Positions 24,921 to 61,898 of a stretch of 64,000 nt of DNA are shown here, one piece after another (position 1 is the stretch's first letter; each line of letters opens with the position of its first letter). The position numbers and the translations under genes were made by a program. This DNA comes from a virus (lineage: Duplodnaviria > Heunggongvirae > Uroviricota > Caudoviricetes): the IMG/VR virus record IMGVR_UViG_3300015615_000629, positions 432,711-496,710 of that record, one strand, 5' to 3'. The notes beneath the pieces are model-generated. The model worked only from the letters and a program-made list of their open reading frames with translations, did not search any database and was not told the DNA's origin.

Positions 24921-25104
24921 TTTTTGTTCTCCATTTTAGACATTCAAGACTATAATCAAAAGTGTGATAAATAATAGTTGCCAATATAAAAAATGGCATA
25001 TCTCTCCATCCTAAATTATTAAATGTCCCACCACAATACAAAACCGCTACTATTACCAAAAAATTAAGCAAAAGGCTTCTTAGCAGGTTAATGAAGAATA
25101 TCAT
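24898..25104 (-). CDS. Small 2-TM membrane protein, paralog of 28777..28974
   Basis: Shares (A/T)V(L)YCGG.(F/I)N and LE(C/Y)(L/I)KW(R/T)K blocks with the other copy. Confidence 0.4.
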   Translation of the reverse strand: MIFFINLLRSLLLNFLVIVAVLYCGGTFNNLGWRDMPFFILATIIYHTFDYSLECLKWRTKNENTISW

Positions 25105-26033
25105 AAACTCTCATAAACCTTTCTATAAGACGCCGCACGTTCCTTACTAGAATGATCTTGAACCGTTCTAAACGCCTGATCTCGAATGGAATTCAGTCTA
25201 TCCCAATTGGCCAACGATTCTGTAATTCTAGTCTTAATTAACTCGACATCCTCATTGCTTCCCCTAATTAACTCCATGTTTTTGCCATTATACAAATCAG
25301 GTACATGCCCTACAAGACGAGATAATACAGGAATTCCACATGACATCGCTTCCAAAATAGGCATTGTGCCAGACTCAAAATTATCCACAGAATTACATAC
25401 ATGCAAAGTGGATTGGTGATAGTATTTAAGCAAATCCTTTTCTAAAACATCCTGATGAAAATCAACACTTCCCGTCTTTAAGACGCTGTTCATATAACCA
25501 CTATCAGAAATCCTTCCGACCAAACATAATCTTAAACCCAATTCCTTACACGCCTGTGCTACTTCCAAGACTCCCTTCTTCCCCTCAATTCTACTAACAG
25601 TCATGTTGATGATGTTACTGTTGGATAAATATGGCACCTTCTTGAAAGCCTCTAAATCAATACCCAAAGGGATGATTTCAGCACTAGGCAGTTCACTCTT
25701 TTGATAAGAATTTACTACAAAAACACGAAGATACTCCTCCCAAAGTTCTTCCTTGAGATTATAGGGATTGTAATGAGTTAAAATCTTCTTTTTGTTATCT
25801 GCCCAAAGTTCTGGAAATAGACTTTTAATCTTCGAAGCAGATTTCCAATACTGAGCATCGACAATATCTGCCCATTTTAGACCCTCCCGAGCCGCTTTCA
25901 TTTGGGCATCATCGGGCTTCTTAGGGTGAAAATAAAGAAGTTTGAAGTCTAAATCTTTATTGTATTTCTGAATGTCCAATGCAAGGGTAGTAATGGCCGT
26001 CTTGGGAGCGGGAACAATTTGTAATATTTTCAT
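25101..26033 (-). CDS. GT4-family (GT-B) glycosyltransferase
   Basis: NFESGTMPILEAMSCGIPVLS is the E-X7-E region. Confidence 0.7.
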   Translation of the reverse strand: MKILQIVPAPKTAITTLALDIQKYNKDLDFKLLYFHPKKPDDAQMKAAREGLKWADIVDAQYWKSASKIKSLFPELWADNKKKILTHYNPYNLKEELWEEYLRVFVVNSYQKSELPSAEIIPLGIDLEAFKKVPYLSNSNIINMTVSRIEGKKGVLEVAQACKELGLRLCLVGRISDSGYMNSVLKTGSVDFHQDVLEKDLLKYYHQSTLHVCNSVDNFESGTMPILEAMSCGIPVLSRLVGHVPDLYNGKNMELIRGSNEDVELIKTRITESLANWDRLNSIRDQAFRTVQDHSSKERAASYRKVYESL

Positions 26034-26455: not shown

Positions 26456-27460
26456 ATGAAAAAAGTATTATTCGGCCCGGTTTCAAACGCACCTTCCTGG
26501 GAATGGGTAGGTAAAGATATTGCAGAATCCCTAAAAACACACTACGAGGTAGAATTTTTTACGGATAAAATCACCCCAGCAGATGCTATTTTTGTAATAA
26601 AAAAGCCTCTTAACGCCGGACAACTAAGAGACACCCACGGCTCTAAAATCATCTACATTCCAGTGGATTATTTCACCAGCCACGGACACATCTACTCACA
26701 CCGCAAATTCCTGCAAAGTTGCTCCATAATAGGCGTACATTGCGATAAACTTAAATCTCATTTAGGCAAATTCGCTCTTACCCATAACGTAGAACATTAC
26801 CTAAAATACCCAATAAACCCTACCCCTTACAAAGAAAATGGCTTTGTCCTTTGGATCGGCGTCTATGAAACCTTACCTTTCTTCATAAAATACCTTCAAA
26901 CCAATCCAATTGCAAATGATATCAAAATTCTTACCAATCTCTCCAATAAAAGTGCCGTAGGAAGATCGCACAAATTCCAAGCCCATTACAACATAGACCT
27001 GAATAATATACCATTCAAACTTTATGACTGGACGCCTGAATTACAAGCCCAAATGATGTCCGAAGCCAAAGCGGCTATCGAAATCAAAGATGGGGACTTT
27101 ATAGGCTCTCATAAACCACCTACTAAAGCCCAACAATTCATTGCAAATGGCATCCCATTAGCCTGTAAGGGTTATTACGCAACTAATTATTTTAAAAAAT
27201 ATGGTTTTTCAATTCCGGAACCTAACGACTATTGGCTTTCCAAAAAATATTGGGAGAAAACCCAAGAAATGGCCAAAGTCTTAAGGAGAGACCTGTCTTT
27301 AGAAAATGTAAGAAATAAATATATTCAATTTATAGAAGCAAACGAGCCGCAAATTAAGACTACAACGGTTATAACTAAGGATTCAAAGATTAAAAAGAAC
27401 GCACTTACAATGGAACAATGGAAAAGGATTCGGCGATCTTTGAAGCAACGTGGCGGTTAA
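26456..27460 (+). CDS. Conserved hypothetical protein, paralog of 16948..17883
   Basis: See the paralog for the shared blocks. ATG at 26456. Confidence 0.5.
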   Translation: MKKVLFGPVSNAPSWEWVGKDIAESLKTHYEVEFFTDKITPADAIFVIKKPLNAGQLRDTHGSKIIYIPVDYFTSHGHIYSHRKFLQSCSIIGVHCDKLKSHLGKFALTHNVEHYLKYPINPTPYKENGFVLWIGVYETLPFFIKYLQTNPIANDIKILTNLSNKSAVGRSHKFQAHYNIDLNNIPFKLYDWTPELQAQMMSEAKAAIEIKDGDFIGSHKPPTKAQQFIANGIPLACKGYYATNYFKKYGFSIPEPNDYWLSKKYWEKTQEMAKVLRRDLSLENVRNKYIQFIEANEPQIKTTTVITKDSKIKKNALTMEQWKRIRRSLKQRGG

Positions 27461-28250
27461 GCATATGCCCAGTTCGATAACCAGTTATTTTTCCTTCTAA
27501 TCTACAGCCCAACAACCCAAAATCTCCAATCATATCCAATACTTTATGTCTGGCAATTTCATTATCAGTCTTCATTTCTACCAAAAACTTATCCGTGTAA
27601 ATGATATAAGGGCTTTTCGAACAGTTTTTAGGCAATAATTTAAATTCCTTACGTTTCTTCTCCCACAATTTTCCTTCTTCGTCTAAAGGATAATGCAAAC
27701 AAGTCCTGCTCCAAGAGATTTCTTTCCTGTAAATCAATGGATCAATGGTAAAACCTGCAACTTGTGTCCCTAAAGCATTATCATAATCCATTACAGCAGA
27801 CATGGTTATACCGGAAACTGGAGAAGGCTCTACTTCAATATGTTTGTCATTTAAGTAAAACTTCTTTCTCTCCGAAATTCTTATTAAATTAACTGGTTTT
27901 TGAATTTCTAAAAAACCAGTTTTAGAAATTATTCGTGTAAAAATATCAGAACTAGCACAGAAGGGAACTTCCTCTTGATCTAATTCGATTAAAATATTAT
28001 CCAATCCAAGGCCGTATATGGCAGATAACAGGTGTTCAGTCATAATAACGCGAACACCATCTTTTTTAAGCGTTGTAGTCAAACCTACTTCTTCATGATC
28101 TATAAACTCCAACAAGGCTGGAATAAAGGTATCTTTTACCTTAAAAACAACGCCATTGTCATGAGGATGACAATGCATGGCTATTTTCTTCCCGCTTCTT
28201 AAGGCTCGTCCTTTAAGAGTAAACGAAGAAGATAGTGTGGTTTGTTTCAT
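27405..28250 (-). CDS. LpxC-family zinc deacetylase (UDP-3-O-acyl-GlcNAc deacetylase-like)
   Basis: MKQTTL...GRALRSGKKIAMHCHP...VRVIMTEHLLSAIYGLGLDNILIELDQEEVPF...HKVLDMIGDFGLLG...GYRTGHMLNRHV. This aligns along its whole length with E. coli LpxC, including the HKxLD and GH.LN motifs. Confidence 0.75.
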   Translation of the reverse strand: MKQTTLSSSFTLKGRALRSGKKIAMHCHPHDNGVVFKVKDTFIPALLEFIDHEEVGLTTTLKKDGVRVIMTEHLLSAIYGLGLDNILIELDQEEVPFCASSDIFTRIISKTGFLEIQKPVNLIRISERKKFYLNDKHIEVEPSPVSGITMSAVMDYDNALGTQVAGFTIDPLIYRKEISWSRTCLHYPLDEEGKLWEKKRKEFKLLPKNCSKSPYIIYTDKFLVEMKTDNEIARHKVLDMIGDFGLLGCRLEGKITGYRTGHMLNRHVASKIAESFSIVPL

Positions 28251-31571: not shown

Positions 31572-32417
31572 TTATTTCTCTATTTGAACAGGAGCCTTCT
31601 GAACAGGTACAGTAACCAACGGCATTATTCCACCACTTCCCACAAACTGTGGCGAAATTCCATTCCACTTTTGAACCATGCCATATTGAATCAACTCGGG
31701 CGTTATACTCTCAGCCAATATCTTGTTAGCCTTAGCCTGTGCCTCCGCTACCATCAATATCGACTGTGCTTCACCTTCCGCTTCCGCAATTTGCTGCCGT
31801 GCTTCAGCCTCTGATTGCTTCACCTTGTTCTCAGCCTTAATCGCCAACTGTGAAGCCTCAATTGTCGCATTAATAGAAGCTTCTACGGACTGATCCACAC
31901 GTAATTTGCCCACAATCGCTATCGTATCAAATACAAATCCATCCTTCTCTAACTTAATCTGTAAATCAGACTTGATCTGCTCCAACAAGTCCTGCCGCAT
32001 TACCCCAAAAATATCCATCACCTTCATCTTGCTGGCATGAATCGTAAACGCATCCCTCACCTGCTGCCGCAAATATTGATGAGATACGTACTCTATATCC
32101 TTACGTAAATCTACAAAAATATGAGCAACCTTATCTTCCCGAATCCGGTAACTAACACTCACATCACACTCAACACGAGTACCTTCTACCGAGTTAAATG
32201 TAATAGCCTCTTCCCCAACCCAATTTACCATATTTAAAAATGTAGGGAATTTATACACTTCAGTCGTGAAAGGATTATACCAAACCCGTCCCGTCTTTAA
32301 GGGGAAATCTTCAACACCCTTTTGATTGCCATATTGATTTACCTTGATACCTACATATCCAGGCTCAACCTTCGCACAACCAGCCAACACCAAAACACCA
32401 ATCAACAAATAACGCAT
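31572..32417 (-). CDS. SPFH/Band-7 (stomatin/prohibitin/HflC-like) lipoprotein
   Basis: Lipobox LVLAGC. VEPGYVGIKV...LKTGRVWYNPF...VECDVSVSYRI is an SPFH-domain N-terminal pattern. A C-terminal A/E/Q-rich coiled-coil follows. Confidence 0.65.
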   Translation of the reverse strand: MRYLLIGVLVLAGCAKVEPGYVGIKVNQYGNQKGVEDFPLKTGRVWYNPFTTEVYKFPTFLNMVNWVGEEAITFNSVEGTRVECDVSVSYRIREDKVAHIFVDLRKDIEYVSHQYLRQQVRDAFTIHASKMKVMDIFGVMRQDLLEQIKSDLQIKLEKDGFVFDTIAIVGKLRVDQSVEASINATIEASQLAIKAENKVKQSEAEARQQIAEAEGEAQSILMVAEAQAKANKILAESITPELIQYGMVQKWNGISPQFVGSGGIMPLVTVPVQKAPVQIEK

Positions 32418-34929: not shown

Positions 34930-36345
34930 CTAAATTGTTTTTATATATCTCAAATGCCCTGCATCCCAAATTCTATCATAGCCATTTAACTTCATAATCT
35001 CATATTCCGGCAAGTCGGTAGAATACCCCTCCATTTTAACCAGTTTATGCTTTTGAAACTTCATCCTGTTAAAAAATTGTTTGTTCTTTATATTGTAATA
35101 CCCATATCCAGGTGAAGTTATCCCATCTAATTTAAATCCAATCTTTTCATACAAACCACCAATAGAATACCTTCGATCAGCATAAGACATAATGCTCTTT
35201 ACATCAAAACACTTCAACAATTTGCTAGCACCTCCAACAATATTCACTCCAAGTCTAGAACAATATCTTTTTAATTCATATCCATATTGTTTGTTCGGTA
35301 CAAGAGTCATGCAGGCGACTAATTCTCCATCGTGATACAAACCATATGCTAACTTAGAGTTGTCACTGCCTTGTAAGTGATTGATATTTAGAAAATTATT
35401 CTTTTCTTCAAACGACAACTCCTTTGACACCGTCTGGCGAGCATAAATTACAGCATTTGTTCTTAAATAGCCAGACAAACGGGATTTAACAATATCTTGT
35501 TTGTTTTCCCATTCATTCTCATATATCTGAATCAGGCGTATACCTAATTTGTCTGCAATTTCGGCTTTTTGAAAATGTAGTTTTTTACCAACTACAGACT
35601 CGGTGTGCCAATACATTCCATGATATTCTACCCCAAGTTTTAGTTCTGGAAGATAAATATCTATTTCTTTATAGTCTAACAAACGCTGATTAGTCTGTAT
35701 TTCACCGGAATGTTTAGTTTTAATGAAATCAGCAATCTCACGTTCACCTCTAGATTGGGACATCTCCCCAACACAACCGGGGCAGGCCAAATCAGACTTA
35801 AGATGTGTATAAGCAGCCTGTTCAAAGTCGCCATGTTTTTTACAAGTTATCTTAATTTTATCATGGGCTTTTGTGTAGTCGCCGTGATAAGTGAATTTGC
35901 CGCCATGCGTTTCAGTTGCTAGTTTCTCGAATGTTTGAACATTATAAGCCACGCCACCTTTACATTTCGGACAACCATTTTTAATGTTTATATGATTTGT
36001 TGCCGATTGGATAAATTCTCCATGATTAGGACAAATTATGGTTACTTTAGTGTAGATTCCATTAACGAGATCAACTTTAGAATAGTCATAAAAATCTCCA
36101 TGAACTTCTCTGGCACGTTTGATAAAAGTTTCTTTGGTGTGCTTGCCTACACCTCTACCAGCACAATGAGGGCAGCCACATTTTAAATGTCGATATGGAT
36201 ACTGTTCTACATCACCATGCCTTGGGCATTTGTAGAGAATCTTGGTAACTTTGTTGACATAAACGGTTTCTGAATAATCGTATTTGTCGCCATGTTTGGC
36301 GGTGGCTTTAACAAAAAACTTGGCTGGACTGGCTTTGCTAGACAT
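34930..36345 (-). CDS. Composite homing-endonuclease-like protein: three tandem Cys/His zinc-ribbon modules, a DUF559/Vsr-like PD-(D/E)xK nuclease and a GNAT-like tail
   Basis: Three repeats of HGDKYDYS..V......CP.HG.F.Q.......GCP.C. GVEYHGMYWHTE...IRLIQIYENEW is a DUF559-type motif. The C-terminal VGGASKLL...LYEKIGFKL resembles acyltransferase motifs A/B. Confidence 0.5.
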   Translation of the reverse strand: MSSKASPAKFFVKATAKHGDKYDYSETVYVNKVTKILYKCPRHGDVEQYPYRHLKCGCPHCAGRGVGKHTKETFIKRAREVHGDFYDYSKVDLVNGIYTKVTIICPNHGEFIQSATNHINIKNGCPKCKGGVAYNVQTFEKLATETHGGKFTYHGDYTKAHDKIKITCKKHGDFEQAAYTHLKSDLACPGCVGEMSQSRGEREIADFIKTKHSGEIQTNQRLLDYKEIDIYLPELKLGVEYHGMYWHTESVVGKKLHFQKAEIADKLGIRLIQIYENEWENKQDIVKSRLSGYLRTNAVIYARQTVSKELSFEEKNNFLNINHLQGSDNSKLAYGLYHDGELVACMTLVPNKQYGYELKRYCSRLGVNIVGGASKLLKCFDVKSIMSYADRRYSIGGLYEKIGFKLDGITSPGYGYYNIKNKQFFNRMKFQKHKLVKMEGYSTDLPEYEIMKLNGYDRIWDAGHLRYIKTI

Positions 36346-41856: not shown

Positions 41857-42447
41857 ATGAGTTTTATAACATTTTTCTCTAACAACAAGAATGAAGTAGC
41901 ATCAATTATCTTTAGAGCCGATGTTACTACACCGCAACTACTTAGGACTGCTGAGAATAGATTTGCTACTGACAAGCCTGTTCGTCAAATGCTTTGTAGG
42001 CTTTTGCCTGAGTTCTTTTCTATCCTAGATAGTTGTCGCTCAGACCTCTTATTTCGTCCTTATCAAGAAGGGATTTCCCTTAAACGTATGGATGAAATTT
42101 TTCCTAGACCTAAATTAGTTGGTCGTGGCAAAACTTGTACTCGGCCGATAGTTATTATCAATAGTTTAGGCAAATCTACTTCTATGTCCTTTGATGCGGA
42201 CTATTTATTAGCTTATCAGCCGGCGTCAAGAGTACAGAGATTCTCTGTCGGAATAATGCATGGCTCTAAAGTTACTAAATTGTGTCAGAAAATTGGCGAT
42301 CAATGGAAAATGAGTCATAAACTTTCTGATTGGGATTTTTTTCACGAATTCCCTTTTACCCTGTCTTTTTCGAATAAAGATAAGGTTAATGACATCTGGA
42401 CTTTGGGCATAGCAAAGATTATAGACGAATGTTATGCTTGTTTTTAA
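41857..42447 (+). CDS. Hypothetical protein
   Basis: ATG-initiated ORF. Confidence 0.4.
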   Translation: MSFITFFSNNKNEVASIIFRADVTTPQLLRTAENRFATDKPVRQMLCRLLPEFFSILDSCRSDLLFRPYQEGISLKRMDEIFPRPKLVGRGKTCTRPIVIINSLGKSTSMSFDADYLLAYQPASRVQRFSVGIMHGSKVTKLCQKIGDQWKMSHKLSDWDFFHEFPFTLSFSNKDKVNDIWTLGIAKIIDECYACF

Positions 42448-43402
42448 TTCAGATTGTATTACTCAAAATTATCTACCCGATGCTTCGGTAGACCTGCTAA
42501 TCTGCGATCCCCCTTTTGGCATTGATGAAACCACGTTTCATAAGCATTACAAAAGGGATGAATCGTATGTAATTAATGGCTACGTTGAAGCTCCCTCGGA
42601 TTATTATCAATTTTCACTTGATTGGTTGACTCAAGCAAAGAGAGTCATGAAAAAAGACGCAACTCTTTACATTATATCGGGTTGGACAAATTTAAGGCAT
42701 ATATTAAATGCAGTTGAAAAAACCGGTTTTTCAACAATTAATCATTTAATTTGGAAATTTAATTTTGGCGTGGCAACCAAGAACAAGTATGTAAGTTCTC
42801 ATTATCACATACTTTATGTCACAACAGGCAAGCCAAAATTTAATACGTATTGCAGATTTGGTTCGCAAGAGAAGGCATTGGGTAAGTCCTTATTGTATCA
42901 GGACTTAGAAGATGTATTTGTGATAAACAAGGAATACATGCCAGGGAGCGTAAAGAATAAGAACAAGTTACCTGATGCTTTGGTGGAGAAGTTGGTACTT
43001 TATTCATCGTCTGTGGGGGATGTGGTTGGGGATTTCTTTTTAGGGAGTTTTACAACGGCATTCGTAGCTAAAAAGTTAGGGCGTATTCCTGTAGGATTTG
43101 AGGTTAACCCTGAGAGTTTCAATCATTACTTAGCAGAATTGGATGCTTTAGAATTAGGAAGTGGGTTAGATTCATTAAAGAAGGTTGTGAATACTATTCC
43201 TGTAAACCAGGGGAAGAGGATTAGTATTGCGGAAAGGGAAGCGATATTGACTGATTATCAGACTGGGATTGGTACGAAGAAGGAGATTATTGCTTATTTG
43301 TGTGATAAGTATGGAAGAGGACGTTTTGCGATAAAGAACATCTTGGATGAAAGTCTTAATTCTGATAATGCTGATCACAATAATATTGGAACTTCTATTT
43401 AG
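42434..43402 (+). CDS. DNA N6-adenine / N4-cytosine methyltransferase (beta class, N6_N4_Mtase)
   Basis: FNSDCITQNYLPDASVDLLICDPPFG (motif IV, DPPF) precedes GDVVGDFFLGSFTTAFVAKKLGR (motif I). The IV-before-I order marks beta-class amino-MTases. Confidence 0.7.
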   Translation: MLVFNSDCITQNYLPDASVDLLICDPPFGIDETTFHKHYKRDESYVINGYVEAPSDYYQFSLDWLTQAKRVMKKDATLYIISGWTNLRHILNAVEKTGFSTINHLIWKFNFGVATKNKYVSSHYHILYVTTGKPKFNTYCRFGSQEKALGKSLLYQDLEDVFVINKEYMPGSVKNKNKLPDALVEKLVLYSSSVGDVVGDFFLGSFTTAFVAKKLGRIPVGFEVNPESFNHYLAELDALELGSGLDSLKKVVNTIPVNQGKRISIAEREAILTDYQTGIGTKKEIIAYLCDKYGRGRFAIKNILDESLNSDNADHNNIGTSI

Positions 43403-44226: not shown

Positions 44227-46767
44227 TTATCCTAAATCTGAATAATCAATTTCTTCTTGATCTTGTTGCTTGCTGTAAGATTGTATTTCAAGATCGTATT
44301 TCTTAATTTCTTCTTTAGAAGGTTCTGCCAATTCTGGCGAGTTTCTTTGTTGCGGTTGGTTTTGATCTTGCGGCTGTCCTTGAGGTTGTCCAATTTGGTC
44401 TTGTGGAATTCCCTCTTCCGGAGGTTGTTCGGGAGTTGGTTGGTTTTGGTTTTGATCAGGAGCGAGCATGGGGTTAGGGCCACCTGCTTCTGAGCCGATT
44501 TCTGTTTCACCTTGACCAGGAGTACCGAAGCCGAGGATGCCTGGATTGCTAGCGATAATTTGCATTCTAAGTTGTTCATATTGTTGCAATTTATTCCTAG
44601 AAATCTTAAGTTCCGCTTCTTTTTCTGGGATTCTTAGGAAATCTATCATGAGATCGAAATCCGAGAAGATGCCAGCGGATTTAAGAGCGGTAGCGTTTTG
44701 AATTCTATTATTCGTAACCTCTTGCATGCTAAGTTCTTGCCACCAAGAGGGAATTGTCATCTTGATGTTGAGGTCGCGGTATAATTGTTTTGGATAACCA
44801 AGCAACGTTAAATGACGTTCTGCTATGGCGTACAATCCATCTTCAACAGAGAGTTGAATTCTACGGATCATTTTGGCGAACTTAACGTCTCTGACTGAGA
44901 GGGTTATTCTCGTTGCATTAGGGTCTGTATTGGAGAAATAATCGTTAGGAAAGTTGAGTGCGGTATAAAGTTTATTTCGGAAATATAACGCATCGTCGAT
45001 TTCGCTCATATTCTGAGCCCCTGGCAAAGTATCAATTCTTGTTTGAGAATTTGCCCGTGTTGGCACCCAAATATCTTCATCGGCAGACGGAGCGAACCAA
45101 CGTTCTTCGGTAGCACTTGCTCCCTGCCCTGTTCCCCTCATAGTAGGAACCTTCTTCTTGCGATACAGCGATTTAATTCTTTCTAAATATGCTTCCGCTT
45201 TACCAGGAGGAAGATTTCCTACATCGATATAGAAAACACGGCGTTCAGGAGCCCTAACCAAACGCATAACAAGCATAGAGTCTTCCATCAATCTCAACTG
45301 ATGGGCTGGCCCTCTAGCTGGCTCGATTAAACTCTGTCCGTAAGGATAGAAAGTATTCCTATCATCGCCGATTCTAAAGTGAATAATTTGATTGGGGGCA
45401 AAGCGAATAGCCGAACTTTGATTCAATTCTTCTTCAGTGGCTTTAGTAACATCTGCTTTAGACAATGCCTGATAATCTGGGCCTTCGGGACTTTGTTGAA
45501 ATTCAACCAGTTTACCTTTGGTGGTTTCAATACGATAAACGCTTTCAGTAGCCAAATCGGCCAACTTAAAGATTCCTGCTTTTGGTTCATTTGGATCAAT
45601 AACTATTTCTAGGAATTTATCGCCATTAATGCAGAGTTGCTTTGTCCATTTCCACAAATTTCTATCAATGTTGAGACGGTCGCGAGCGAAGAAGAAATCT
45701 TCCAATTCTTTTGTCACTTCATCATTTTTACATTTTATTGTAAATAAATGGTCGTTTTCACCGGATTGGCAATTGTGTAAAATAAGGGATTTGGTGGCGA
45801 AGCACTTTAGTTTATCTACAGAAAGGTCATAAACTCTTATTTTTGAATTTTTACGGACGCCAACAACTTTTCGATAATCTTTCTTTTTAGCCAACCAGAA
45901 CATTTCGTCGGTGTGGTAGCCTTTGGTTTTTAGATGGTATCTGATTCCTTCCCATCCTCTGTCGAGCATTTGTTCAATTTGTTTTGTGGTTAAGCCTGCT
46001 TTGAGGCTTTTCATTACTTTGGCGACAAGTTCATCCTCTGGCTTCTTGGTTTCGTCTCTCCATTGGTTGATAAATGTTCTTTCAGATATCCAACTGTCCT
46101 CGAATGTAAAGATTCTTGGAAAAACGTTCTTTCTCAAAGGATTTAGGAGTGTATTTGGTTCCAATCTATAGAAAGGCATTAGGTGATCGCCAACTTTAAG
46201 ATCGCCACCTGCTCTCCAGGTTTCGTCACGCATTAGAACTAAATGGTCTTCTGTAATTACTTCGAAGCTGCCATCGTCTAATGATATTTTTATGGTTTCT
46301 TCGTCTTTAACATATCTTGGATTTTTGGCCCAACCAATGGAATAATCATGTTTTTCGTGGTCATAACCATAGACTAGGAAAGGCTCATCTTTCTTATTTT
46401 CTGCAAGCCATTCGATAGATTTATGTCCAAAATAGACTGTTTGAACGGGTGTATTAGCAGCAAAACATGCTTCATCGGCAATAACCGTCATTACATTTTC
46501 AATTTCAGGAACATTTCTTAATCTTTCATATTCCTTCATTCTGGATTGACGATTGGTAATACTGCTTAGATCAATAAAGTCGCTGCTATCTCTAAGGCGG
46601 ATGGTGCCTTGGGTGCCGCCGAAGGTTCCATCTTGACGGATATCCCGTATAACGTCGGGTCTTAGAACTCCAGCACCTGTCAAATCTTGAGATTTTTGAC
46701 GTTTGGAGATGGGATCATCTTCAGCAGCGTATGTGAATAACTTAAATAAATCAGCCCAGAATGGCAT
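44227..46767 (-). CDS. Portal protein, T4 gp20-like, interrupted by a mini-intein
   Basis: MSEIDDALYFRNKLYTALNFP, SLIEPA and other gp20-like blocks, at about 846 aa against about 520-580 aa expected. An insert with intein blocks A, B, F and G is present. The QNQ/PE-rich C-terminal tail is low-complexity. Confidence 0.75.
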   Translation of the reverse strand: MPFWADLFKLFTYAAEDDPISKRQKSQDLTGAGVLRPDVIRDIRQDGTFGGTQGTIRLRDSSDFIDLSSITNRQSRMKEYERLRNVPEIENVMTVIADEACFAANTPVQTVYFGHKSIEWLAENKKDEPFLVYGYDHEKHDYSIGWAKNPRYVKDEETIKISLDDGSFEVITEDHLVLMRDETWRAGGDLKVGDHLMPFYRLEPNTLLNPLRKNVFPRIFTFEDSWISERTFINQWRDETKKPEDELVAKVMKSLKAGLTTKQIEQMLDRGWEGIRYHLKTKGYHTDEMFWLAKKKDYRKVVGVRKNSKIRVYDLSVDKLKCFATKSLILHNCQSGENDHLFTIKCKNDEVTKELEDFFFARDRLNIDRNLWKWTKQLCINGDKFLEIVIDPNEPKAGIFKLADLATESVYRIETTKGKLVEFQQSPEGPDYQALSKADVTKATEEELNQSSAIRFAPNQIIHFRIGDDRNTFYPYGQSLIEPARGPAHQLRLMEDSMLVMRLVRAPERRVFYIDVGNLPPGKAEAYLERIKSLYRKKKVPTMRGTGQGASATEERWFAPSADEDIWVPTRANSQTRIDTLPGAQNMSEIDDALYFRNKLYTALNFPNDYFSNTDPNATRITLSVRDVKFAKMIRRIQLSVEDGLYAIAERHLTLLGYPKQLYRDLNIKMTIPSWWQELSMQEVTNNRIQNATALKSAGIFSDFDLMIDFLRIPEKEAELKISRNKLQQYEQLRMQIIASNPGILGFGTPGQGETEIGSEAGGPNPMLAPDQNQNQPTPEQPPEEGIPQDQIGQPQGQPQDQNQPQQRNSPELAEPSKEEIKKYDLEIQSYSKQQDQEEIDYSDLG
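45772..46467 (-). other. Hint-domain mini-intein (232 aa) within the portal gene
   Basis: Intein residue 1 is Cys in CFAANTPVQTV (block A). Block B is TxxH, in SFEVITEDHLVLM. The C-terminus is KIRVYDLSVDKLKCFATKSLILHN followed by +1 Cys (HNC). No LAGLIDADG/HNH endonuclease domain fits in the middle. Confidence 0.6.
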
Positions 46768-49703: not shown

Positions 49704-49856
49704 ATGCCGCAGAAACGCAAATTTTACGATCCAATAGTTATTGCTGGTGTTTTAACTGTAAGTTTTACGATTTTAAAAGAAGTTGGAAAAGCCATTGTTA
49801 GCTTTGTAACATATACATTGCTCAAAAAGTGGTGGGAGAAAAGAGATAAAAAATGA
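49704..49856 (+). CDS. 50-aa membrane peptide
   Basis: ATG...TGA overlapping the start of the M28 peptidase gene (ATGA). Central TM helix IVIAGVLTVSFTIL. Confidence 0.3.
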   Translation: MPQKRKFYDPIVIAGVLTVSFTILKEVGKAIVSFVTYTLLKKWWEKRDKK

Positions 49857-51028
49857 ATGATAAAAGACTTATTTTAGTTGTTATCTGTTTGTCGTTAGTT
49901 GGTGGATTTATTGTTTACAATAAATTTTATGAAAAACCACATTTTTCAAATTTACCTGAAGATGCCCCTTCAACGCCTTTCTCTCTACCAGACAAAGAAG
50001 AAGATCCGCTAGAATCCATTAAAGAGTCTGAACTTACAGAGATGCTTAATTATTTGGCTTCTGATGAATTAGAAGGGCGAATGAGCGGCAAAAAGGGGAA
50101 TGTGGTAGCGGCTGAGTTTATAAAGAAGAAATTCGAAGAATTTGGTTTGCCAACGGAATATGACAAATTTAGGATTAGTAGAGAAAATCCAGGCCCTAAA
50201 AATGAGACTGGGGATGACTTTACTCAAAACATTTACGCTTGGATAGAAGGTAACGACCCGAATCTAAAAGATGAAGTTGTAATCATAGGGGCTCATATGG
50301 ATCATATTGGGTATGGCCCTTCTATGAGTAGAGCCCCAAATCGTCGAGAAGTACATAATGGTGCTGACGATAATGGGAGCGGGACGGTTGCACTAATTGA
50401 AATTGCAGAAGCATTTTCATGTGTTAAAGATAAGGTTAAGAGAACTGTAGTGTTTCAGGCATATTCTGCGGAAGAGATGGGTTTGATTGGTTCTCGTCAT
50501 TATTGCGATAATCCTAAGTTTCCGAGAGATAAGCCTGATATTAAGAAGACAGTCATGATGTGCAACCTCGATATGGTTGGATATTTGAATAAAGGTGTTT
50601 ATTCTCTAGCTTGGGGTGCTGGGGATAGTTCTTTGGACATTAGCCGAATAATTGAAGAGTTAAATGAGAAATACACTTTTGCTAGAAAAGTGACTAGTAG
50701 GGGAAGTGGCGGTAGTGATCATGCTAGTTTTTACAACAAAAGGGTTCCGGTGGCTTTCCTTCATACTGGATTACACCCTTACTACCACACACCAGATGAT
50801 GATGTAGATAAGATTAATTTTCAGGGCATGGAACAAATAGCCAAATATGCTTTTGAATTGGCGTGGAAAGTGTGCCAAGGTGAAACGCCGCCAAAATTCA
50901 ATCTTGCTACTTTTAAGGAAATGGAATATACCCATGACCACGGACATCCTGATGTAGAATCTGAAATTCATAGCTATCATAAGCATGAACATGAACACGG
51001 GCACAATCATTCACACGAGGAAAAGTAA
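49853..51028 (+). CDS. M28-family zinc aminopeptidase, membrane-anchored, with a His-rich C-terminal tail
   Basis: All five metal-ligand blocks are present: GAHMDHIG, GADDNGSG, EEMGLIGS, CNLDMVGY and GGSDHASF. N-terminal TM helix. The tail is HDHGHPDVESEIHSYHKHEHEHGHNHSHEEK. Confidence 0.7.
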   Translation: MNDKRLILVVICLSLVGGFIVYNKFYEKPHFSNLPEDAPSTPFSLPDKEEDPLESIKESELTEMLNYLASDELEGRMSGKKGNVVAAEFIKKKFEEFGLPTEYDKFRISRENPGPKNETGDDFTQNIYAWIEGNDPNLKDEVVIIGAHMDHIGYGPSMSRAPNRREVHNGADDNGSGTVALIEIAEAFSCVKDKVKRTVVFQAYSAEEMGLIGSRHYCDNPKFPRDKPDIKKTVMMCNLDMVGYLNKGVYSLAWGAGDSSLDISRIIEELNEKYTFARKVTSRGSGGSDHASFYNKRVPVAFLHTGLHPYYHTPDDDVDKINFQGMEQIAKYAFELAWKVCQGETPPKFNLATFKEMEYTHDHGHPDVESEIHSYHKHEHEHGHNHSHEEK

Positions 51029-51471
51029 TGGATTTAAACAAACTAGTTGAGAAATTGAACGAAGATTTGAACCGTGAATACATGCATATGCATTTTTATT
51101 TGCATGCTGCATCGACTATTTCCGGTACGGATCGGGAAGAATACCGAGAATTTCTATTAGATGCAGCTAAAAGCGAGCTGAATCATATCCATGAATTTAC
51201 CGATATGATTATCGGTCTTGGATATATTCCAACTCCCGAAACCCTGAGTTACCCCACCAACTTAACTAGGGTTAGGGAAATTCTTGAGTATGCCTTACAA
51301 ATAGAAGACGAGGTAGTTGAAAGATATGTCCAACGGATGGATGATGCCGAAGAATTAGAGAAAGAGGGTGGATTGAATAAAGTTCATGGAAGGTTTATTC
51401 ATATTTTTCTAGAAAACCAAATTATGGATTCACGTACCGACGCAGACAATATTCGAAGAATGTTGAGGTGA
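51028..51471 (+). CDS. Ferritin-like (Dps/bacterioferritin-like four-helix-bundle) protein
   Basis: LNEDLNREYMHMHFYLHAA and AKSELNHIHEFTDMI (E..H pairs) fit a ferritin-like di-metal site. Confidence 0.45.
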   Translation: MDLNKLVEKLNEDLNREYMHMHFYLHAASTISGTDREEYREFLLDAAKSELNHIHEFTDMIIGLGYIPTPETLSYPTNLTRVREILEYALQIEDEVVERYVQRMDDAEELEKEGGLNKVHGRFIHIFLENQIMDSRTDADNIRRMLR

Positions 51472-54698: not shown

Positions 54699-55295
54699 TT
54701 AAATTCCCCAAAGGCGTTTAAAGTCGGCTAACCATCCCTTACGTTCTTTTTCTTGAATGGTTCTGTTTTCATCGGTTCTGGCTTTGCTTTTTATCTTTGT
54801 TTTTTCAAGGGCGGTTGGATATAAGCGTTCTATCCATAATTCCCATTCATTATTTGGAACATAAGATTCTAGTTCAGTTCTCAGTTCTCTATAGACTTGA
54901 TATCCTTTTGCTAAAACTTTAATTTCTAGAGGGTCTGGATAGAGATAAATTTCTAGATGCATGCCGCGATTTAATCCATCAAAATGGTAGCAATGTAAGG
55001 TTTTAGATACCTCTTGTATATTTGGTCTCTCATCGCCCCATTCTGGGTATCCTGCTAAATCTGGATATGCTTCTTCGTCTATGTTTTTGGTAGGAATTAG
55101 TTCTTCTTCGGCGAAATAATCATCTAGAAACCTTTGGTCTACAAAAGAGCCGCCATCATACTGTTCATAAACAGGCTGTCCCATACCTCGAACGATGATG
55201 GCAATCTTGCCATTTAGCCCCATAAAGTTCTTTTTAGTTGCTTCTATTGTTCTTTGATCTCGGATTCTTTTTTGGAAGTCGTCTAGGTTTGCCAT
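54699..55295 (-). CDS. Hypothetical protein
   Basis: ATG at 55295 overlaps the MscL gene's end by 62 nt. An alternative ATG lies at 55223. Confidence 0.4.
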   Translation of the reverse strand: MANLDDFQKRIRDQRTIEATKKNFMGLNGKIAIIVRGMGQPVYEQYDGGSFVDQRFLDDYFAEEELIPTKNIDEEAYPDLAGYPEWGDERPNIQEVSKTLHCYHFDGLNRGMHLEIYLYPDPLEIKVLAKGYQVYRELRTELESYVPNNEWELWIERLYPTALEKTKIKSKARTDENRTIQEKERKGWLADFKRLWGI

Positions 55296-55725
55296 TTATC
55301 ACTCTTTCACCACAGTAGCAACATTTTTTACTTAACCAATAGATATCTTTATAACAAGATTCACAAATTCTCGTATCGAGACATTCAATTTTCGGTTTTT
55401 GAAAAGTTCCGAATATCTTTTTGTATATTATGTACAAGACTAGAGAGATTATTATAAAATCTATAAAAGAGCCAACCAGATAGCCAACTTCTAGATTTAA
55501 GCCTTGAATTGGCGAGTAATTGATATTACGCCAGTTATTTCCAGTTGTGCCAATAATATAATTAAGAATTGGCATAAAGAGATTGCTTGTCAAAGCGGTT
55601 ACTACTTTTTGAAAAGCAGAGCCGATAATAAAGGCTATGGCCACATCGACCATTCTATTTTTGAAAGCAAACTCTTTATATTGATGAAATTCTCGTTCTA
55701 GAGCATATTTTCCGTGGAGGTGCAT
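55234..55725 (-). CDS. MscL-family large-conductance mechanosensitive channel with a C-terminal Cys-rich zinc-ribbon extension
   Basis: FHQYKEFAFKNRMVDVAIAFIIGSAFQKVVTALTSNLFMPIL matches the MscL N-terminal amphipathic helix and TM1 (KEFxxRGNVVDLAVGVIIGAAF...IMP). A second TM follows. The tail is CESCYKD...CCYCG. The track start is TTG 55782; ATG 55725 was chosen. Confidence 0.6.
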   Translation of the reverse strand: MHLHGKYALEREFHQYKEFAFKNRMVDVAIAFIIGSAFQKVVTALTSNLFMPILNYIIGTTGNNWRNINYSPIQGLNLEVGYLVGSFIDFIIISLVLYIIYKKIFGTFQKPKIECLDTRICESCYKDIYWLSKKCCYCGERVINGKPRRLPKKNPRSKNNRSN

Positions 55726-55846
55726 TAAATAGTATAGTAACAGAAAGGCTTTAATGTTTTTATTGGTTAAAAGTTTATTCAACAGGTTGATAGGTTATGC
55801 CGGAGCCGAAAAACAAGATTTTTTGCATCTTACCGGCAACATTAGC

Positions 55847-57256
55847 ATGCAGCTAAATGACCCGACCACGCCGGATTTAAGGGTTCAGGTTTCATTGCCT
55901 TCTATGAGCAAATATCTGGGCTTTGCTGTAGCAGGATTTACTGGAGATTTAACCCCAGGAACCGCCTCTGCACAGGCTGCTAATTGCTATTACACTTTGG
56001 CCAAATCTATTGAATTTACCCAAAGCTCCATTGGAAAATTTAAAGAACCTTTGAAAAAATGGTCAGCAGTTGACAAATTGGCTATTTTCCCCCGTGCTGG
56101 TAAAGATTTTAATGCCTATTACGACAGGCAAGCCTTAAGGTTCTTCTATGAGAAAGACCCTTCTACCAGTAGAACCATCTATACTGCGGACAGCATGGAC
56201 ATTGTTGCTCATGAATTGGGACACGGCTTACTTGATACCATGCGTCCTGATTTCTGGAATGTCCAGGCTTTAGAAATTTGGGCGTTTCATGAATCTTTTG
56301 GTGATATCAATGCCATGATTACGCTTATGCACTTCGATAAGGTAATTGAAAAAGCCCTTGCTGAAACTAATGGCGATTTAAGAAAATCCAATACAATTTC
56401 CAGATTAGCTGAAGAATTGGGTTCTGCTATTTACCATTTAACCGGTGGTCGAGATGGCAGCAAGCCAGATGCGTTACGAAATGCGGTAAACGACTTCACT
56501 TATGTAAAACCTGAAACATTGCCTGAAATTGCTCCTAACGATCAATTGGCTGGGGAACCACATAGTTTTAGTAGGGTGTTTACGGGTACGTGGTATGACA
56601 TGTTCGTTAGGATTTACGAGAAAAATGTCAGTAGCGGGATTAATCCTGTAGATTCTGTTAAGAATGCCAGGGATGTATCTGGTTTGTATATTTTACAGGC
56701 TATCTCTCAATGTCCGAGAACGGCACGTTTAATGGACGCTTTGGCCAGAAACATGCTTTTAATTGACAAAAATTCTGGTGGTGTGCATCAAGAAATTTTA
56801 CACGATGTTTTCAAGGCCAGAAAAATCCTTTCTCCATCTAACAAATTAATGGGTAACGAATTAACCCTAGAACAAATGAAAAGCACAATGGGGGGAACCG
56901 ACGAAATCGTTCATAGCAGGGGCTTAACAGCAGTCATTAAGAGGGACGCTCAAACAATTAAGTTATCAGAAGGGATGCGTTCATTAAATGCAATTTCTGC
57001 CAACGGTTTTGACTTAAACACCTTAGAATTAGAAATCCCAACAGACTCATATTACGAGTTCAACGATGCTGGAAAAATGGTTTATTCTCTTGTGGCTCAA
57101 GAAGATGAAGCGATTGAAGCCGCCAAGGCATGTGCTAATGTCATTTATATTACCGAGGATATCGGTGCAGACAATAAAACCAGTTGGGATGCCATTGATG
57201 GCAAACTAATTAGGAGCAGTATCGGGGGCTGCTTTGGCTTTCACTCTGCCGGTTGA
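55847..57256 (+). CDS. Gluzincin metalloprotease, thermolysin (M4)-like HEXXH+ExxxD
   Basis: VAHELGHGLLD, then 22 residues, then HESFGD (E-x-x-x-D). An alternative upstream ATG lies at 55754. Confidence 0.6.
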   Translation: MQLNDPTTPDLRVQVSLPSMSKYLGFAVAGFTGDLTPGTASAQAANCYYTLAKSIEFTQSSIGKFKEPLKKWSAVDKLAIFPRAGKDFNAYYDRQALRFFYEKDPSTSRTIYTADSMDIVAHELGHGLLDTMRPDFWNVQALEIWAFHESFGDINAMITLMHFDKVIEKALAETNGDLRKSNTISRLAEELGSAIYHLTGGRDGSKPDALRNAVNDFTYVKPETLPEIAPNDQLAGEPHSFSRVFTGTWYDMFVRIYEKNVSSGINPVDSVKNARDVSGLYILQAISQCPRTARLMDALARNMLLIDKNSGGVHQEILHDVFKARKILSPSNKLMGNELTLEQMKSTMGGTDEIVHSRGLTAVIKRDAQTIKLSEGMRSLNAISANGFDLNTLELEIPTDSYYEFNDAGKMVYSLVAQEDEAIEAAKACANVIYITEDIGADNKTSWDAIDGKLIRSSIGGCFGFHSAG

Positions 57257-57646
57257 GTCGAATTCAATCGTATTGACATTGATATCGATTTGTTTGTAGA
57301 CTAGCTCCGCATAAGGCTTATCTCCCATTATGTCCACTCGAATGTCAACTCGGGATATGTTTTCTTCTATTTGTTTTATTTCAATAGCTAGCTTTTTATT
57401 CGACTTCACGGTGGTGATTTTGTAGGTATTGTTTTTTTCGTGTTTTTCTTGTAAAATCTTTAAATCTAGCTCTTTTAGGGCGTGTTTGGTGGACAAATAA
57501 ACATGTTTGGCTTGAAATGGGTAATATTTTTGTGCTTCCCCGTCTTTCCACATAATAATTCCATTAACTAGTGGAGTAACTAAGACATCGGCTGTGGAAC
57601 AGCCGATAAATGCTAAAGACATGAGCAAAAGTATAAATTTACGCAT
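57206..57646 (-). CDS. Lipoprotein (lipobox LAFIGCS)
   Basis: Signal peptide plus Cys. Convergent 51-nt overlap with the metalloprotease gene. Confidence 0.45.
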   Translation of the reverse strand: MRKFILLLMSLAFIGCSTADVLVTPLVNGIIMWKDGEAQKYYPFQAKHVYLSTKHALKELDLKILQEKHEKNNTYKITTVKSNKKLAIEIKQIEENISRVDIRVDIMGDKPYAELVYKQIDINVNTIEFDSTGRVKAKAAPDTAPN

Positions 57647-59053: not shown

Positions 59054-60423
59054 CTTTATCTGCTTTCTAAAACATTTTTAGTTCTTGCTTCGACCAATCG
59101 ACTTAATTAATCAAAAATATTAACCAGAGGCCAACTGTCCACAAGCGTAATTTCCCGAATAGCCTTCGGTAAGTATATTTTTTGCTGCGTTTATATCTCT
59201 ATCAATGCTAACGCTACACTGATCACAAACATAAACTCTTTCACTCAATGGCATTTTCTGTTTGTTTCCGCAATTACTACATAATTGACTACTTGGAAAA
59301 AAACGTCCTACTTTGTAGACTTCATTATTCCAAATGTCTTTTTTATAGTCTAATTGACGATAAAACTCTCCTAAACCTACATCTGCCAATGTGAAACTTA
59401 GCGAACGATTCTTAAGCATGCCTTTGACGTTTAAATCTTCAATACACATAATTTGGTTTTCATTACATAATTTTGAAGTAATTTTATGCCAAAAATCTTG
59501 TCTAATATTACTTAGTTTTAAGTGTGCTCTTTGCAATTTAATAATTTGCTTTTTGCTATTATTGCTTCCTTTTTGTTTTCTTGATAAACGTCTATAAAGT
59601 TTGGCAATTTTTTTCTTTTGTTGTTTGAAGGGCCGTGGCGGCTTTATTTGCAAACCATCACTAGTGGTAATTGCCTCGTTAATCCCTAAATCTACACCGA
59701 TAACACTCTCGCCAGATCGTTCTTTTGAATAATTATCAACGTCAACACGAACAGAAACGAACCATTGGCTAGCGCGGCAGCAGATAGTACCTGATATTAT
59801 TTTACCTTTTAATCTCAAATTTTCAGAAACTTTAATTCGCCCTATTTTTTGAATTTTTATTTGTTTATTTCCAAATACAAATCTATCATTAGAAACATAA
59901 AATGAGTCTTTTTTGCCTTTCTTTTTGAAAGTTGGATATTTGGATAATTTCTTGAAAAATCTTTGAAAAGCATTGTTTAGATTAACGAATGGTTGTTGGT
60001 TGGCATCTTTTGGGCTTTCGTAGACCCATTTAGGCTTTTCTTTATTCCATAATTTTTTCAACTCGTTTGCTGTAGGTTTTTGTCCTTGTTTATACAAGTC
60101 AGTCCATTTTGCCAATGCCCAGTTGTACGTAAATCTAGCCGTTCCACAAGCTTTTTTAAGCATAGTGGTTTGTTCTTTGTTTGGATAGATTTGTATTTTG
60201 TGGGTCAATATCAAAATTTATCTCCGTATTATTTTTTTCTTCCTTTTAACAGGCGGCAACTGATCAGATCCAGGTGTGTGAACATCATTCCAGGCACCTA
60301 TCGATTGCCCCTTGCCTGGATCGGGATCAACAGGATTTTGTTTTGGAGGTTCCAAACCTCCACCCAAAACCTGTGATTCCAACCAATTCTTAAAACCAAT
60401 ACCGTTCACAGAGTTATATATCG
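59054..60423 (-). mobile_element. IS200/IS605-family insertion (tnpB-only, IS1341-like), about 1.37 kb
   Basis: It contains tnpB. The upstream ~200 bp, 60215-60423, is GC-rich. It carries subterminal hairpins, CCAGGCA-16 nt-TGCCTGG and GGAGGTT-cca-AACCTCC, which are LE-like. The short 3' segment 59054-59119 would be the RE/omega-RNA region. Boundaries are approximate. Confidence 0.55.
59120..60214 (-). CDS. tnpB: TnpB (IS605 OrfB-family RuvC-like RNA-guided nuclease)
   Basis: N-terminal KIQIYPNKEQTTMLKKACGTARFTYNWAL. RuvC-I motif IGVDLGI. C-terminal zinc finger CSNCG...CDQC. RuvC-III DRDINAAKNI. TTG start. Confidence 0.8.
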   Translation of the reverse strand: MILTHKIQIYPNKEQTTMLKKACGTARFTYNWALAKWTDLYKQGQKPTANELKKLWNKEKPKWVYESPKDANQQPFVNLNNAFQRFFKKLSKYPTFKKKGKKDSFYVSNDRFVFGNKQIKIQKIGRIKVSENLRLKGKIISGTICCRASQWFVSVRVDVDNYSKERSGESVIGVDLGINEAITTSDGLQIKPPRPFKQQKKKIAKLYRRLSRKQKGSNNSKKQIIKLQRAHLKLSNIRQDFWHKITSKLCNENQIMCIEDLNVKGMLKNRSLSFTLADVGLGEFYRQLDYKKDIWNNEVYKVGRFFPSSQLCSNCGNKQKMPLSERVYVCDQCSVSIDRDINAAKNILTEGYSGNYACGQLASG

Positions 60424-60921: not shown

Positions 60922-60953
60922 ACGGATATATAATATGAAGGGATTTGCCAATT

Positions 60954-61898
60954 ATGCACAAAACATGGAAGTCAATCAAGATCATAGCAGCAACAGTTGC
61001 AGTTCTTTTTTCTATATTTCTAGTATCTTACGAGCCTGTGCATGAGCCAATTATTCTTGTGCCTGCTCAGGGGCCTCTTCCAATGCCTTTGGTATTGGAT
61101 ACTAACCCCCTTACAGCAAACAAGTTATACGGCGACCCCAGACCACAAAGAGACGTAGAATACAGAGAATATTTGTGTGCTTCGTTGAAGATTTCTGTGA
61201 GTGGGGCAAGCGGCTCAGGAACTATTGTTTATTATGACCACGAAAAGAACGAAGCCTATGTGGCATCTTGTGGTCACTTGTGGAGCGGCAGCCGAGATGC
61301 CAAAGACATTAAATCTCCAGTAACTTGCAAAGTGATAACTTGGTATCATAATGACGAAAAGTTAAAAGAACCGAAATCATATCCGGCCGAAGTCCTTTTC
61401 TGGTCGAATAATAGCGGTTTCGATACCAGTTTACTTAAATTTAAGCCTGATTGGGTTCCTAATTACTTCCCAATTGCTCCGGAAGATTACAAGCTAGAAG
61501 AAGGAATGCATTTGCATTCTTGTGGCTGTGACCATGCCGAAGAGGTTGCTCATTATGACGTTGAGGTTGTTGGCTATGAAGGCAAAAACCTAGTTACTAA
61601 ACTCAACAGCCCTCGTCCTGGTCGTTCTGGTGGTGGTTTAATGAGCGATGATGGTTTTTATGTAGGAACTTGCTGGGGGACTAGCGATACTAGTGGTAAT
61701 GGCGTTGGTTATTTTACAACTTTGAAGGCAATTACTACTGTTTATACAAGAAATGACTATAAATGGCTTCTAGAAGTCGGCCCAAGTGGAGTTGCCAGAC
61801 AAATTCCTATGAGAAGATGGTCTAGAATTGAAGATTTTGATTCCAATAAAATTCCAATGCCTGGACGGGGGAGTTTGCCAGCACCGTTATCTCGCTAG
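60954..61898 (+). CDS. Membrane-anchored chymotrypsin-fold serine peptidase
   Basis: TM helix IIAATVAVLFSIFLV. GASGSGTIV and GRSGGGLM (a GDSGG-like catalytic Ser motif). The track start is TTG 60945; ATG 60954. Confidence 0.5.
   Translation: MHKTWKSIKIIAATVAVLFSIFLVSYEPVHEPIILVPAQGPLPMPLVLDTNPLTANKLYGDPRPQRDVEYREYLCASLKISVSGASGSGTIVYYDHEKNEAYVASCGHLWSGSRDAKDIKSPVTCKVITWYHNDEKLKEPKSYPAEVLFWSNNSGFDTSLLKFKPDWVPNYFPIAPEDYKLEEGMHLHSCGCDHAEEVAHYDVEVVGYEGKNLVTKLNSPRPGRSGGGLMSDDGFYVGTCWGTSDTSGNGVGYFTTLKAITTVYTRNDYKWLLEVGPSGVARQIPMRRWSRIEDFDSNKIPMPGRGSLPAPLSR

Follow-up and report, generated by a model that had tools for sequence, protein, structure and literature searches.

An MscL-type channel gene with a zinc-ribbon-like tail in a huge phage: a candidate osmotic valve for the infected cell

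Mechanosensitive channels of the MscL family share a compact plan, represented by the proteins of E. coli, M. tuberculosis (2OAR), S. aureus (3HZQ) and M. acetivorans (4Y7K). An N-terminal amphipathic helix is followed by a first transmembrane (TM) helix that carries the pore constriction and a glycine, a periplasmic loop and a second TM helix. The C-terminal domain is not needed for gating, truncated proteins being functional, and it is naturally absent in the M. acetivorans channel, MaMscL (PMC6167328). Viral members of the same family have been described in a 2026 survey of estuarine metagenomes, in which MscL genes of Caudoviricetes rise with salinity and are read as osmotic-stress genes (PMC13288924). 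That work remains at survey level, without protein architecture, lineage or synteny. Here we describe such a gene in its genomic setting. It lies on the minus strand of a 64,000-nucleotide stretch (hereafter the window) of the Caudoviricetes record IMGVR_UViG_3300015615_000629, positions 432,711 to 496,710, and its product is referred to as MscL-ZnR, for the zinc-ribbon-like module (ZnR) that follows its second TM helix. The gene very probably encodes an MscL-type channel: family and architecture are read directly, and channel activity is presumed from them.

Profile comparisons bear out the preliminary description of this stretch, which had proposed a phage-encoded MscL homolog that aligns with the bacterial channels and had named the Pfam hidden Markov model (HMM) PF01741 as a check. 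Against this model the protein scores 72.7 bits, well above the gathering threshold of 27.4 (E=4.3e-20). The match covers residues 33-128 of the longest open reading frame (ORF, 182 aa), equivalent to profile positions 3-97 of 123. Solved channels are matched by sequence alone, namely those of S. aureus (3hzq, 3.6e-13), M. acetivorans (4y7k, 1.7e-10) and M. tuberculosis (2oar, 7.9e-9). Eight NCBIfam models for MscL also match, and the sole PHROG match is phrog_25692, a family of unknown function.

The gene had been placed at 55234-55782. Its reading frame, peptides and family assignment hold, whereas its start requires revision. Read from a TTG codon, the maximal ORF (55234..55782, minus strand) comprises 182 aa and contains the quoted peptides KEFAFKNRMVDVAIAFIIGSAFQKVV and LFMPIL together with the Cys-rich end CESC...CCYC. 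Translation most likely begins with the ATG at 55725, which would give a protein of 163 aa. The Joint Genome Institute (JGI) likewise starts the identical protein of a 3.8-kb metagenome contig (P0001/L001) at an ATG, with 163 aa. The TTG start at 55782 was rejected because it creates a 29-nt overlap with the divergent gene starting at 55754 and because the 19 extra residues, NKLLTNKNIKAFLLLYYL, are unlike any homologue N-terminus.

An AlphaFold2 (AF2) model built on 55 homologues, with a mean predicted local distance difference test (pLDDT) score of 78, contains the amphipathic helix and both TM helices recognised earlier (Table 1). In a Foldseek comparison with the PDB, closed-state MaMscL (4y7k) is the top match (probability 1.0), followed by 2oar. 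A short N-terminal extension precedes the S1 helix, in which F19 is invariant and K17 nearly so among homologues; this segment aligns with E. coli F7-F10. Loop residues T61, G62, W65 and R66 are invariant in the phage-type alignment (A2). In TM2, G81 and F90 are invariant and K103 is nearly so in homologues. A 12-residue linker then joins TM2 to the zinc-ribbon-like module. The C-terminal cytoplasmic helical bundle is absent from both the Pfam match and the AF2 model, and a CxxC-x10-CxxC tail stands in its place, as expected from the Cys-rich extension that had been reported to replace the cytoplasmic end.

The gate was mapped by aligning about 290 family members and referring the columns to what we take to be the E. 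coli MscL sequence. Window residues D27-V28-A29-I30-A31-F32-I33-I34-G35 align with E. coli D18-L19-A20-V21-G22-V23-I24-I25-G26. Pore-constriction residues are thus present and hydrophobic (V28 and F32), together with G35. Across the family, F19, P52, G81 and F90 (E. coli F10, P43, G76 and F85) are invariant or nearly so. Among 16 phage copies, the L19 position is occupied by M, V, I or L, the V23 position by F in all but one, and G35 is retained throughout. The resulting gate motif of the window protein, AIAFI(I/M)G, is the same as that of MaMscL (4y7k). No hydrophilic substitution of the gain-of-function type occurs at the gate positions.

Table 1. Features of the MscL-ZnR locus and of the surrounding window. 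Positions count from the first letter of the window; residue numbers refer to the 163-aa protein.
Feature	Position	Strand	Basis or remark
MscL-ZnR coding sequence	55234..55725	-	163 aa plus stop; ORF list, Pfam MscL, identical 163-aa JGI gene call
Amphipathic S1 helix, residues 5-20 (incl. Y16-K17-E18-F19-A20-F21)	55666..55713	-	AF2 and homologue conservation
TM1 pore helix, residues 24-59	55549..55656	-	AF2; aligned to TM1 of SaMscL (S. aureus) and MaMscL
Gate segment V28-A29-I30-A31-F32-I33-I34-G35 (E. coli L19-G26)	55621..55644	-	Alignment column mapping
Periplasmic loop with beta-hairpin, residues 60-79, TG..WR motif	55489..55548	-	AF2 strands 70-73 and 76-78
TM2, residues 80-105, basic YKK cluster at end	55411..55488	-	AF2 helix
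Zinc-ribbon-like module, residues 118-141, C121-x2-C124-x10-C135-x2-C138	55303..55374	-	Cys conservation; pLDDT 91-92
Basic, low-confidence C-terminal tail, residues 142-163	55237..55302	-	AF2 pLDDT 62-65
p198, conserved phage gene of unknown function	54699..55295	-	Co-directional with MscL, overlaps MscL end
p500, divergent neighbour, 500 aa, HExxH/E zincin motif	55754..57256	+	Conserved motif; 62 viral loci
Divergent intergenic spacer, 28 bp, MscL ATG to p500 start	55726..55753	.	Sequence
Gp23-type major capsid protein, T4-type portal with intein, large terminase, head maturation protease, TnpB	same window		Family scans
2H phosphoesterase, GmrSD-N-like plus HNH, Dam-type methyltransferase, DNA methyltransferase	4586-5200, 7907-9364, 13625-14398, 42434-43402	+, -, +, +	
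Envelope gene set (joint)	27405-28250 (-), 23557-24543 (-), 31572-32417 (-), 1143-1976, 5136-6137		
Envelope gene set (joint, rest)	15197-16951, 17861-18547, 20532-21407, 25101-26033 (-), 10750-12006		

The four cysteines of the tail show no variation, either across 20 aligned homologues or across all 16 copies from the phage locus. Similarity to curated zinc-ribbon HMMs is low: the window tail matches only Nop10p (15.1 bits, below the cut-off of 27.2), and the tails of relatives match the Pfam families UPF0547, Zn_ribbon_3 and DZR at 14-26 bits, each under its cut-off. The segment is modelled with short strands, and Foldseek relates it weakly and locally to zinc ribbons of the RanBP2 type and of ribosomal proteins, all at E>1. 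An additional Cys115 (55381-55383, minus strand) lies five residues before the first CxxC in a C-x5-CxxC arrangement. This fifth cysteine is partly conserved: many but not all phage copies keep it (L010, L013, L014, L015, L018, L020, L025 and L016), and it is absent from the fully read cellular ZnR-MscL sequences.

Database searches extend this architecture far beyond phages. An exhaustive HMMER search returned 3,944 relatives at E<=1e-3. The CxxC-x10-CxxC motif follows TM2 in 60 of 153 proteins, comprising the best 150 of these matches and three found earlier. A profile of 20 ZnR proteins then gave more than 4,000 matches at E<=1e-10, with the motif in 115 of the 116 newly returned top matches. 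The usual cellular tail reads TTK-x-CPYC-x10-C-P-x-C-TS-x-L. Several of these proteins, from genomes of Lachnospiraceae, Eubacterium and Myxococcales, carry the NCBI name "large conductance mechanosensitive channel protein MscL", and one cluster (P0269) is present on 371 contigs. Our literature search found no paper joining MscL with a zinc ribbon or zinc finger. ZnR-tailed MscL is a very large subfamily that is well represented in databases and has apparently gone undescribed. Abundant in gut Firmicutes and Myxococcales and annotated there as plain MscL, it should be of interest to the channel field. Because those 115 top matches include plain cellular MscLs, the tail is not specific to phages; judged from these sequences, it is inherited rather than a phage invention. 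Its place under the pore makes a structural cap or an oligomerisation module the likeliest role of the ribbon, with zinc presumably bound, and a regulatory function through redox state, zinc or a partner protein is possible.

The window belongs to a huge phage, a group here with genomes of about 0.5 Mb and T4-like head genes. Its major capsid protein shares 70% identity with the one encoded by LR756511.1, a 595-kb "uncultured phage", and a protein identical to the neighbouring p198 occurs on a 572-kb JGI contig. Syntenic relatives lie on viral contigs of 171, 527 and 546 kb, where the p500/MscL/p198 arrangement is kept at about 40% protein identity. A megablast comparison of the 10 kb around the MscL gene with GenBank phages gave zero matches, and a tRNA search of the window found none.

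Scanning IMG/VR with a p500 alignment recovered 62 loci. In 61 of them p198 lies within 3 kb upstream of p500, mostly abutting it. MscL occurs between the two in only 11 loci and is absent from the junction in 50 of the 62. On a neighbour-joining tree of p500, the junction copies are confined to one subclade, where 11 of the 17 members (the window among them) carry MscL, compared with 0 of the 45 loci elsewhere on the tree. In LR756511.1, p198 and p500 are about 45 bp apart, and the whole 595-kb genome has no MscL match. The content of the junction varies, as in a hot-spot: three unrelated ORFs occupy it in one sister phage, and in another MscL and p198 are separated by an additional 311-aa gene (junction inserts in L035 and L030). 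A second phage group, represented by 177- and 459-kb contigs and many short ones, encodes a 141-aa MscL-ZnR in a different neighbourhood. As read from their sequences, the neighbours there are an RNA-ligase-like ORF, a likely phosphoesterase and an IS605 OrfB/TnpB-like ORF. The TnpB-like gene (L017, 7366-8991) lies directly upstream of MscL-ZnR in the 459-kb contig.

The MscL gene is under strong purifying selection. The closest pair of copies (L016/L017) differs at 50 nt but only 7 aa, with a nonsynonymous rate (dN) of 0.021, a synonymous rate (dS) of 0.80 and a dN/dS of 0.026. More distant pairs give dN/dS of 0.17-0.33, at saturated dS. On the simplest account, the gene was acquired long ago at the root of the subclade, descended vertically over deep divergence and was occasionally lost. 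A scan of IMG/VR with the single MscL-ZnR protein returned nothing; a 6-sequence alignment was used as the query for the viral collection, and a 3-sequence alignment for the genome collection. The latter scan returned only a mis-binned phage contig and distant cellular MscLs, identifying neither donor nor host. When IMG/VR was scanned with a bacterial-type ZnR-MscL, mostly canonical host mscL genes at predicted prophage edges were recovered. These matches were set aside as host genes rather than true phage genes, and several GenBank "phage" records with MscL are mislabelled bacterial contigs.

The reading that we favour, and to which we give even chances, is that MscL-ZnR protects the infected cell osmotically, as a tension-gated safety valve. 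The ancestor of one huge-phage subclade would have acquired a ZnR-MscL gene, inserted at the variable p500/p198 junction in such a way that it lies directly upstream of p198 and runs into the start of that gene. During infection, the protein would enter the host inner membrane and assemble like other MscLs, presumably as a pentamer. The hydrophobic gate formed by V28 and F32 would keep the pore shut and allow it to open only at raised membrane tension. Venting of solutes would then keep the infected cell from bursting until the huge phage has completed its long replication cycle, a host-maintenance function similar to that of auxiliary metabolic genes. Zinc ribbons would sit under the cytoplasmic mouth, in the usual place of the helical bundle, where they would most likely serve as a structural cap or in oligomerisation and might also modulate the channel.

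Several lines of evidence are consistent with such a valve. With an intact core, a hydrophobic gate and a gene under selection, MscL-ZnR is most likely a working tension-gated channel. An accessory fitness gene also fits better than an essential lysis gene, because LR756511.1 lacks MscL and the gene has been lost repeatedly. Genes for envelope functions are frequent in the window and include LpxC (170 bits), GDP-mannose 4,6-dehydratase (361 bits), an SPFH/Band7 protein, a cytidylyltransferase, at least five glycosyltransferases and a class-III aminotransferase. Together with a DUF3568 lipoprotein, they suggest that the phage manages the host envelope during a long infection, and LpxC points to a Gram-negative host. 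If the valve reading is correct, huge phages bring their own osmotic valve, and control of membrane tension joins a list of host-maintenance functions that in this window also comprises LpxC, the SPFH protein, the lipoprotein and many glycosyltransferases.

Other observations weigh against this interpretation. Most bacteria own mechanosensitive channels, so that the benefit of a phage copy has to be inferred. Structural and late-looking genes surround the MscL gene, and it is coupled to p198; this setting would also suit a late role in lysis. The nearest solved relative by fold, MaMscL, has a conductance of only 0.25 nS (PMC6167328), and the capacity of the valve may accordingly be small. Furthermore, the NCBIfam equivalog model TIGR00220 scores 68.3 bits, narrowly under its cut-off of 71. 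This shortfall arises because the C-terminal helix (profile positions 101-127) has no counterpart in the protein, and MscL-ZnR fails only those family features that are tied to the missing helix.

A lysis or timing device is an unlikely alternative, and the genomic context leans against it. A pinholin-like pore would open on schedule, perhaps triggered by way of the zinc ribbon or of a partner protein from the phage, and the collapse of membrane potential would activate an endolysin of the signal-arrest-release (SAR) type or otherwise start lysis. The small size, inner-membrane placement, two TM helices and strongly basic C-terminal tail of MscL-ZnR superficially recall a holin, and the protein is encoded in a region of structural and late-type genes, its end overlapping the conserved phage gene p198. 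The DUF3568 lipoprotein gene (lipobox FIGC), 1.5 kb away, could in principle be spanin-like. Yet no endolysin or holin family of Pfam or PHROG was found nearby or among about 55 scanned ORFs of the window, and MscL is missing from most relatives, including the 595-kb LR756511.1, which must still lyse its host. The gate is fully hydrophobic, as in tension-gated MscLs, without any gain-of-function-like change; the zinc-ribbon tail is common to ordinary cellular MscLs; and a second phage lineage carries MscL-ZnR in an unrelated, non-lysis context. A related idea, which we regard as a long shot, is a gate under phage control, with the ribbon sensing redox state or zinc, or docking p198, and opening the pore at a chosen moment. 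Such a protein would represent an MscL-derived depolarisation or lysis timer, or a superinfection-exclusion device, and an undescribed analogue of holins.

Phage DNA entry depends on membrane potential and turgor, and a leak or lowered turgor could in this way exclude superinfecting phages or blunt abortive infection by the host. This use of ion and solute flux seems rather improbable. It would suit an accessory gene in a hot-spot with unrelated inserts, a typical site for competition and defence genes, and candidate counter-defence genes do occur in the window, among them an Acb1-like 2H phosphoesterase, DNA methyltransferases and a GmrSD-like gene. The conserved closed-state gate nevertheless speaks against a constitutive leak, and to our knowledge no exclusion system uses MscL. 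Similarity of the 2H phosphoesterase to Acb1, which counters the cyclic-oligonucleotide-based antiphage signalling system (CBASS), is itself below threshold (25.4 bits against 27). Export through the pore, whether of osmolytes, nucleotides, signals or small cytoplasmic proteins, appears less probable still. MscL opens one of the largest known gated pores, and the gene is conserved under selection. In addition, one report ties MscL to the excretion of cytoplasmic proteins by E. coli (PMC10070815). On the other hand, no candidate cargo gene is consistently linked to it across both phage contexts, and the closest solved relative conducts poorly. Finally, that the gene is a functionless passenger, or a bacterial gene assigned to a phage through mis-assembly or mis-binning, is hardly credible. 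Some contigs of this lineage are indeed binned in cellular metagenome-assembled genomes (MAGs) of Crenarchaeota and Bacteriovoracaceae, many "viral" MscLs in IMG/VR are host genes, and several GenBank "phage" records are bacterial. Against this, the gene stands between conserved phage genes near terminase, portal and capsid in more than 12 independent assemblies, its dN/dS of 0.026 is not that of a passenger, and the mis-binned MAG contigs themselves hold phage terminase and intein-containing portal genes.

Features around the gene complete the description of the locus. Including its stop codon, the end of the MscL reading frame shares 55234-55295 with the first 20 codons of p198, the two genes being read in different frames, and the p198 N-terminus is conserved also in homologues without an MscL gene upstream. 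The 198-aa product has no match in Pfam or PHROG, and its AF2 model (pLDDT 81) yields no meaningful fold match in the PDB (best E=0.5). In p500, residues H153, E154, H157 and E180 are invariant (alignment A4), and similarity to Peptidase_M4 is weak (18.7 bits, below the cut-off). No Shine-Dalgarno-like motif precedes the MscL ATG, and in the window sequence sigma-70-like promoter sites are no commoner than in shuffled controls. A k-mer search drew attention to TACTATA, present in six upstream regions including that of MscL. This candidate was dropped because the window holds 8 matches against 7.4 expected and because its distance to start codons varies. The DUF3568 protein (57206-57646, minus strand) has a signal peptide and a lipobox (LAFIGC), indicating a phage-encoded lipoprotein, and relatives L008, L010 and L027 also keep its gene close to the MscL locus.

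Further observations concern the huge-phage background. The portal gene of the window (44227-46767, minus strand) is interrupted by an intein and matches both Intein_splicing and Portal_T4 of Pfam. In a 546-kb relative (L027, 19440 onwards), a larger portal ORF of 1243 aa has intein and LAGLIDADG matches. An HNH/homing endonuclease gene directly adjoins the major capsid gene, and a second terminase-like ORF lies elsewhere (34930-36345 and 22902-23564, both minus strand). This short second ORF for a terminase large subunit (220 aa, phrog_2) is 25 kb from the full-length terminase gene. A TnpB/IS605 OrfB gene occurs at 59120-60214 (minus strand; phrog_506, E=1.3e-113). Genes for an M28 aminopeptidase, a ferritin-like protein and a trypsin-like peptidase (49853-51028, 51028-51471 and 60945-61898) keep their synteny across the huge-phage relatives, the set sitting between terminase and replication genes.

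The relative of about 546 kb (L027/L028; GCA_003352295.1, QQVH01000006.1) was deposited in a MAG labelled "Crenarchaeota archaeon", and its MscL copy carries the NCBI name "MscL family protein". It is a mis-binned phage, because terminase, an intein-containing portal and the MscL synteny are all aboard. A further 546-kb contig (L091, CALFYV010000090.1) in a MAG labelled "Bacteriovoracaceae bacterium" encodes a 44%-identical MscL copy and is probably the same phage. That a huge-phage genome of about 546 kb is hidden in MAGs labelled Crenarchaeota and Bacteriovoracaceae is a matter of database hygiene.

Our search of the literature found no paper joining jumbo or huge phages with mechanosensitive channels, and a paper on "moraphages" is silent on MscL. 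Already known are the MscL family and virus-borne MscLs at survey level. New here are the assignment of the gene to one defined subclade of huge phages and to its site of insertion, the evidence of selection, and the recognition of the zinc-ribbon tail as a widespread, unstudied MscL variant. Among viral entries of BFVD, the only MscL-like ones matched are from Terrestrivirus, a giant virus of eukaryotes, whose "Large-conductance mechanosensitive channel" (A0A3G4ZLV6) is a weak fold match. Like the window protein, holins and pinholins are small, span the inner membrane with two TM helices and end in a basic C-terminus on the cytoplasmic side. They differ from it in that MscL-ZnR has no sequence kinship to holin families, has no adjoining endolysin, is dispensable in relatives and possesses a tension-gated core.

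Compared with bacterial and archaeal MscLs, the window protein retains the channel core and replaces the C-terminal helical bundle by a Cys4 zinc-ribbon-like module and a basic tail. It also has an extension of about 12 residues before S1, which reaches up to about 35 in relatives. With respect to E. coli MscL, it bears Phe instead of Val at the V23 gate position and is phage-encoded. The closest architecture is that of the cellular ZnR-MscLs (P0269, P0254, P0265 and P0154), which share the MscL core, a short charged linker and CPxC-x10-CxxC, usually followed by TS.L, although identity to them is only 24-31%. Their gate is of the G-V type (AVGVIIGG), whereas that of the phage clade is of the A-F type (AIAFIIG), and they lack the N-terminal extension of 12 to about 35 residues found in the phage clade. 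The TG..WR loop motif and the frequent fifth cysteine set the phage clade apart as well, and the window copy (CESC...CCYCGE) has lost both the Pro that follows the first Cys in the cellular proteins and their CTS motif.

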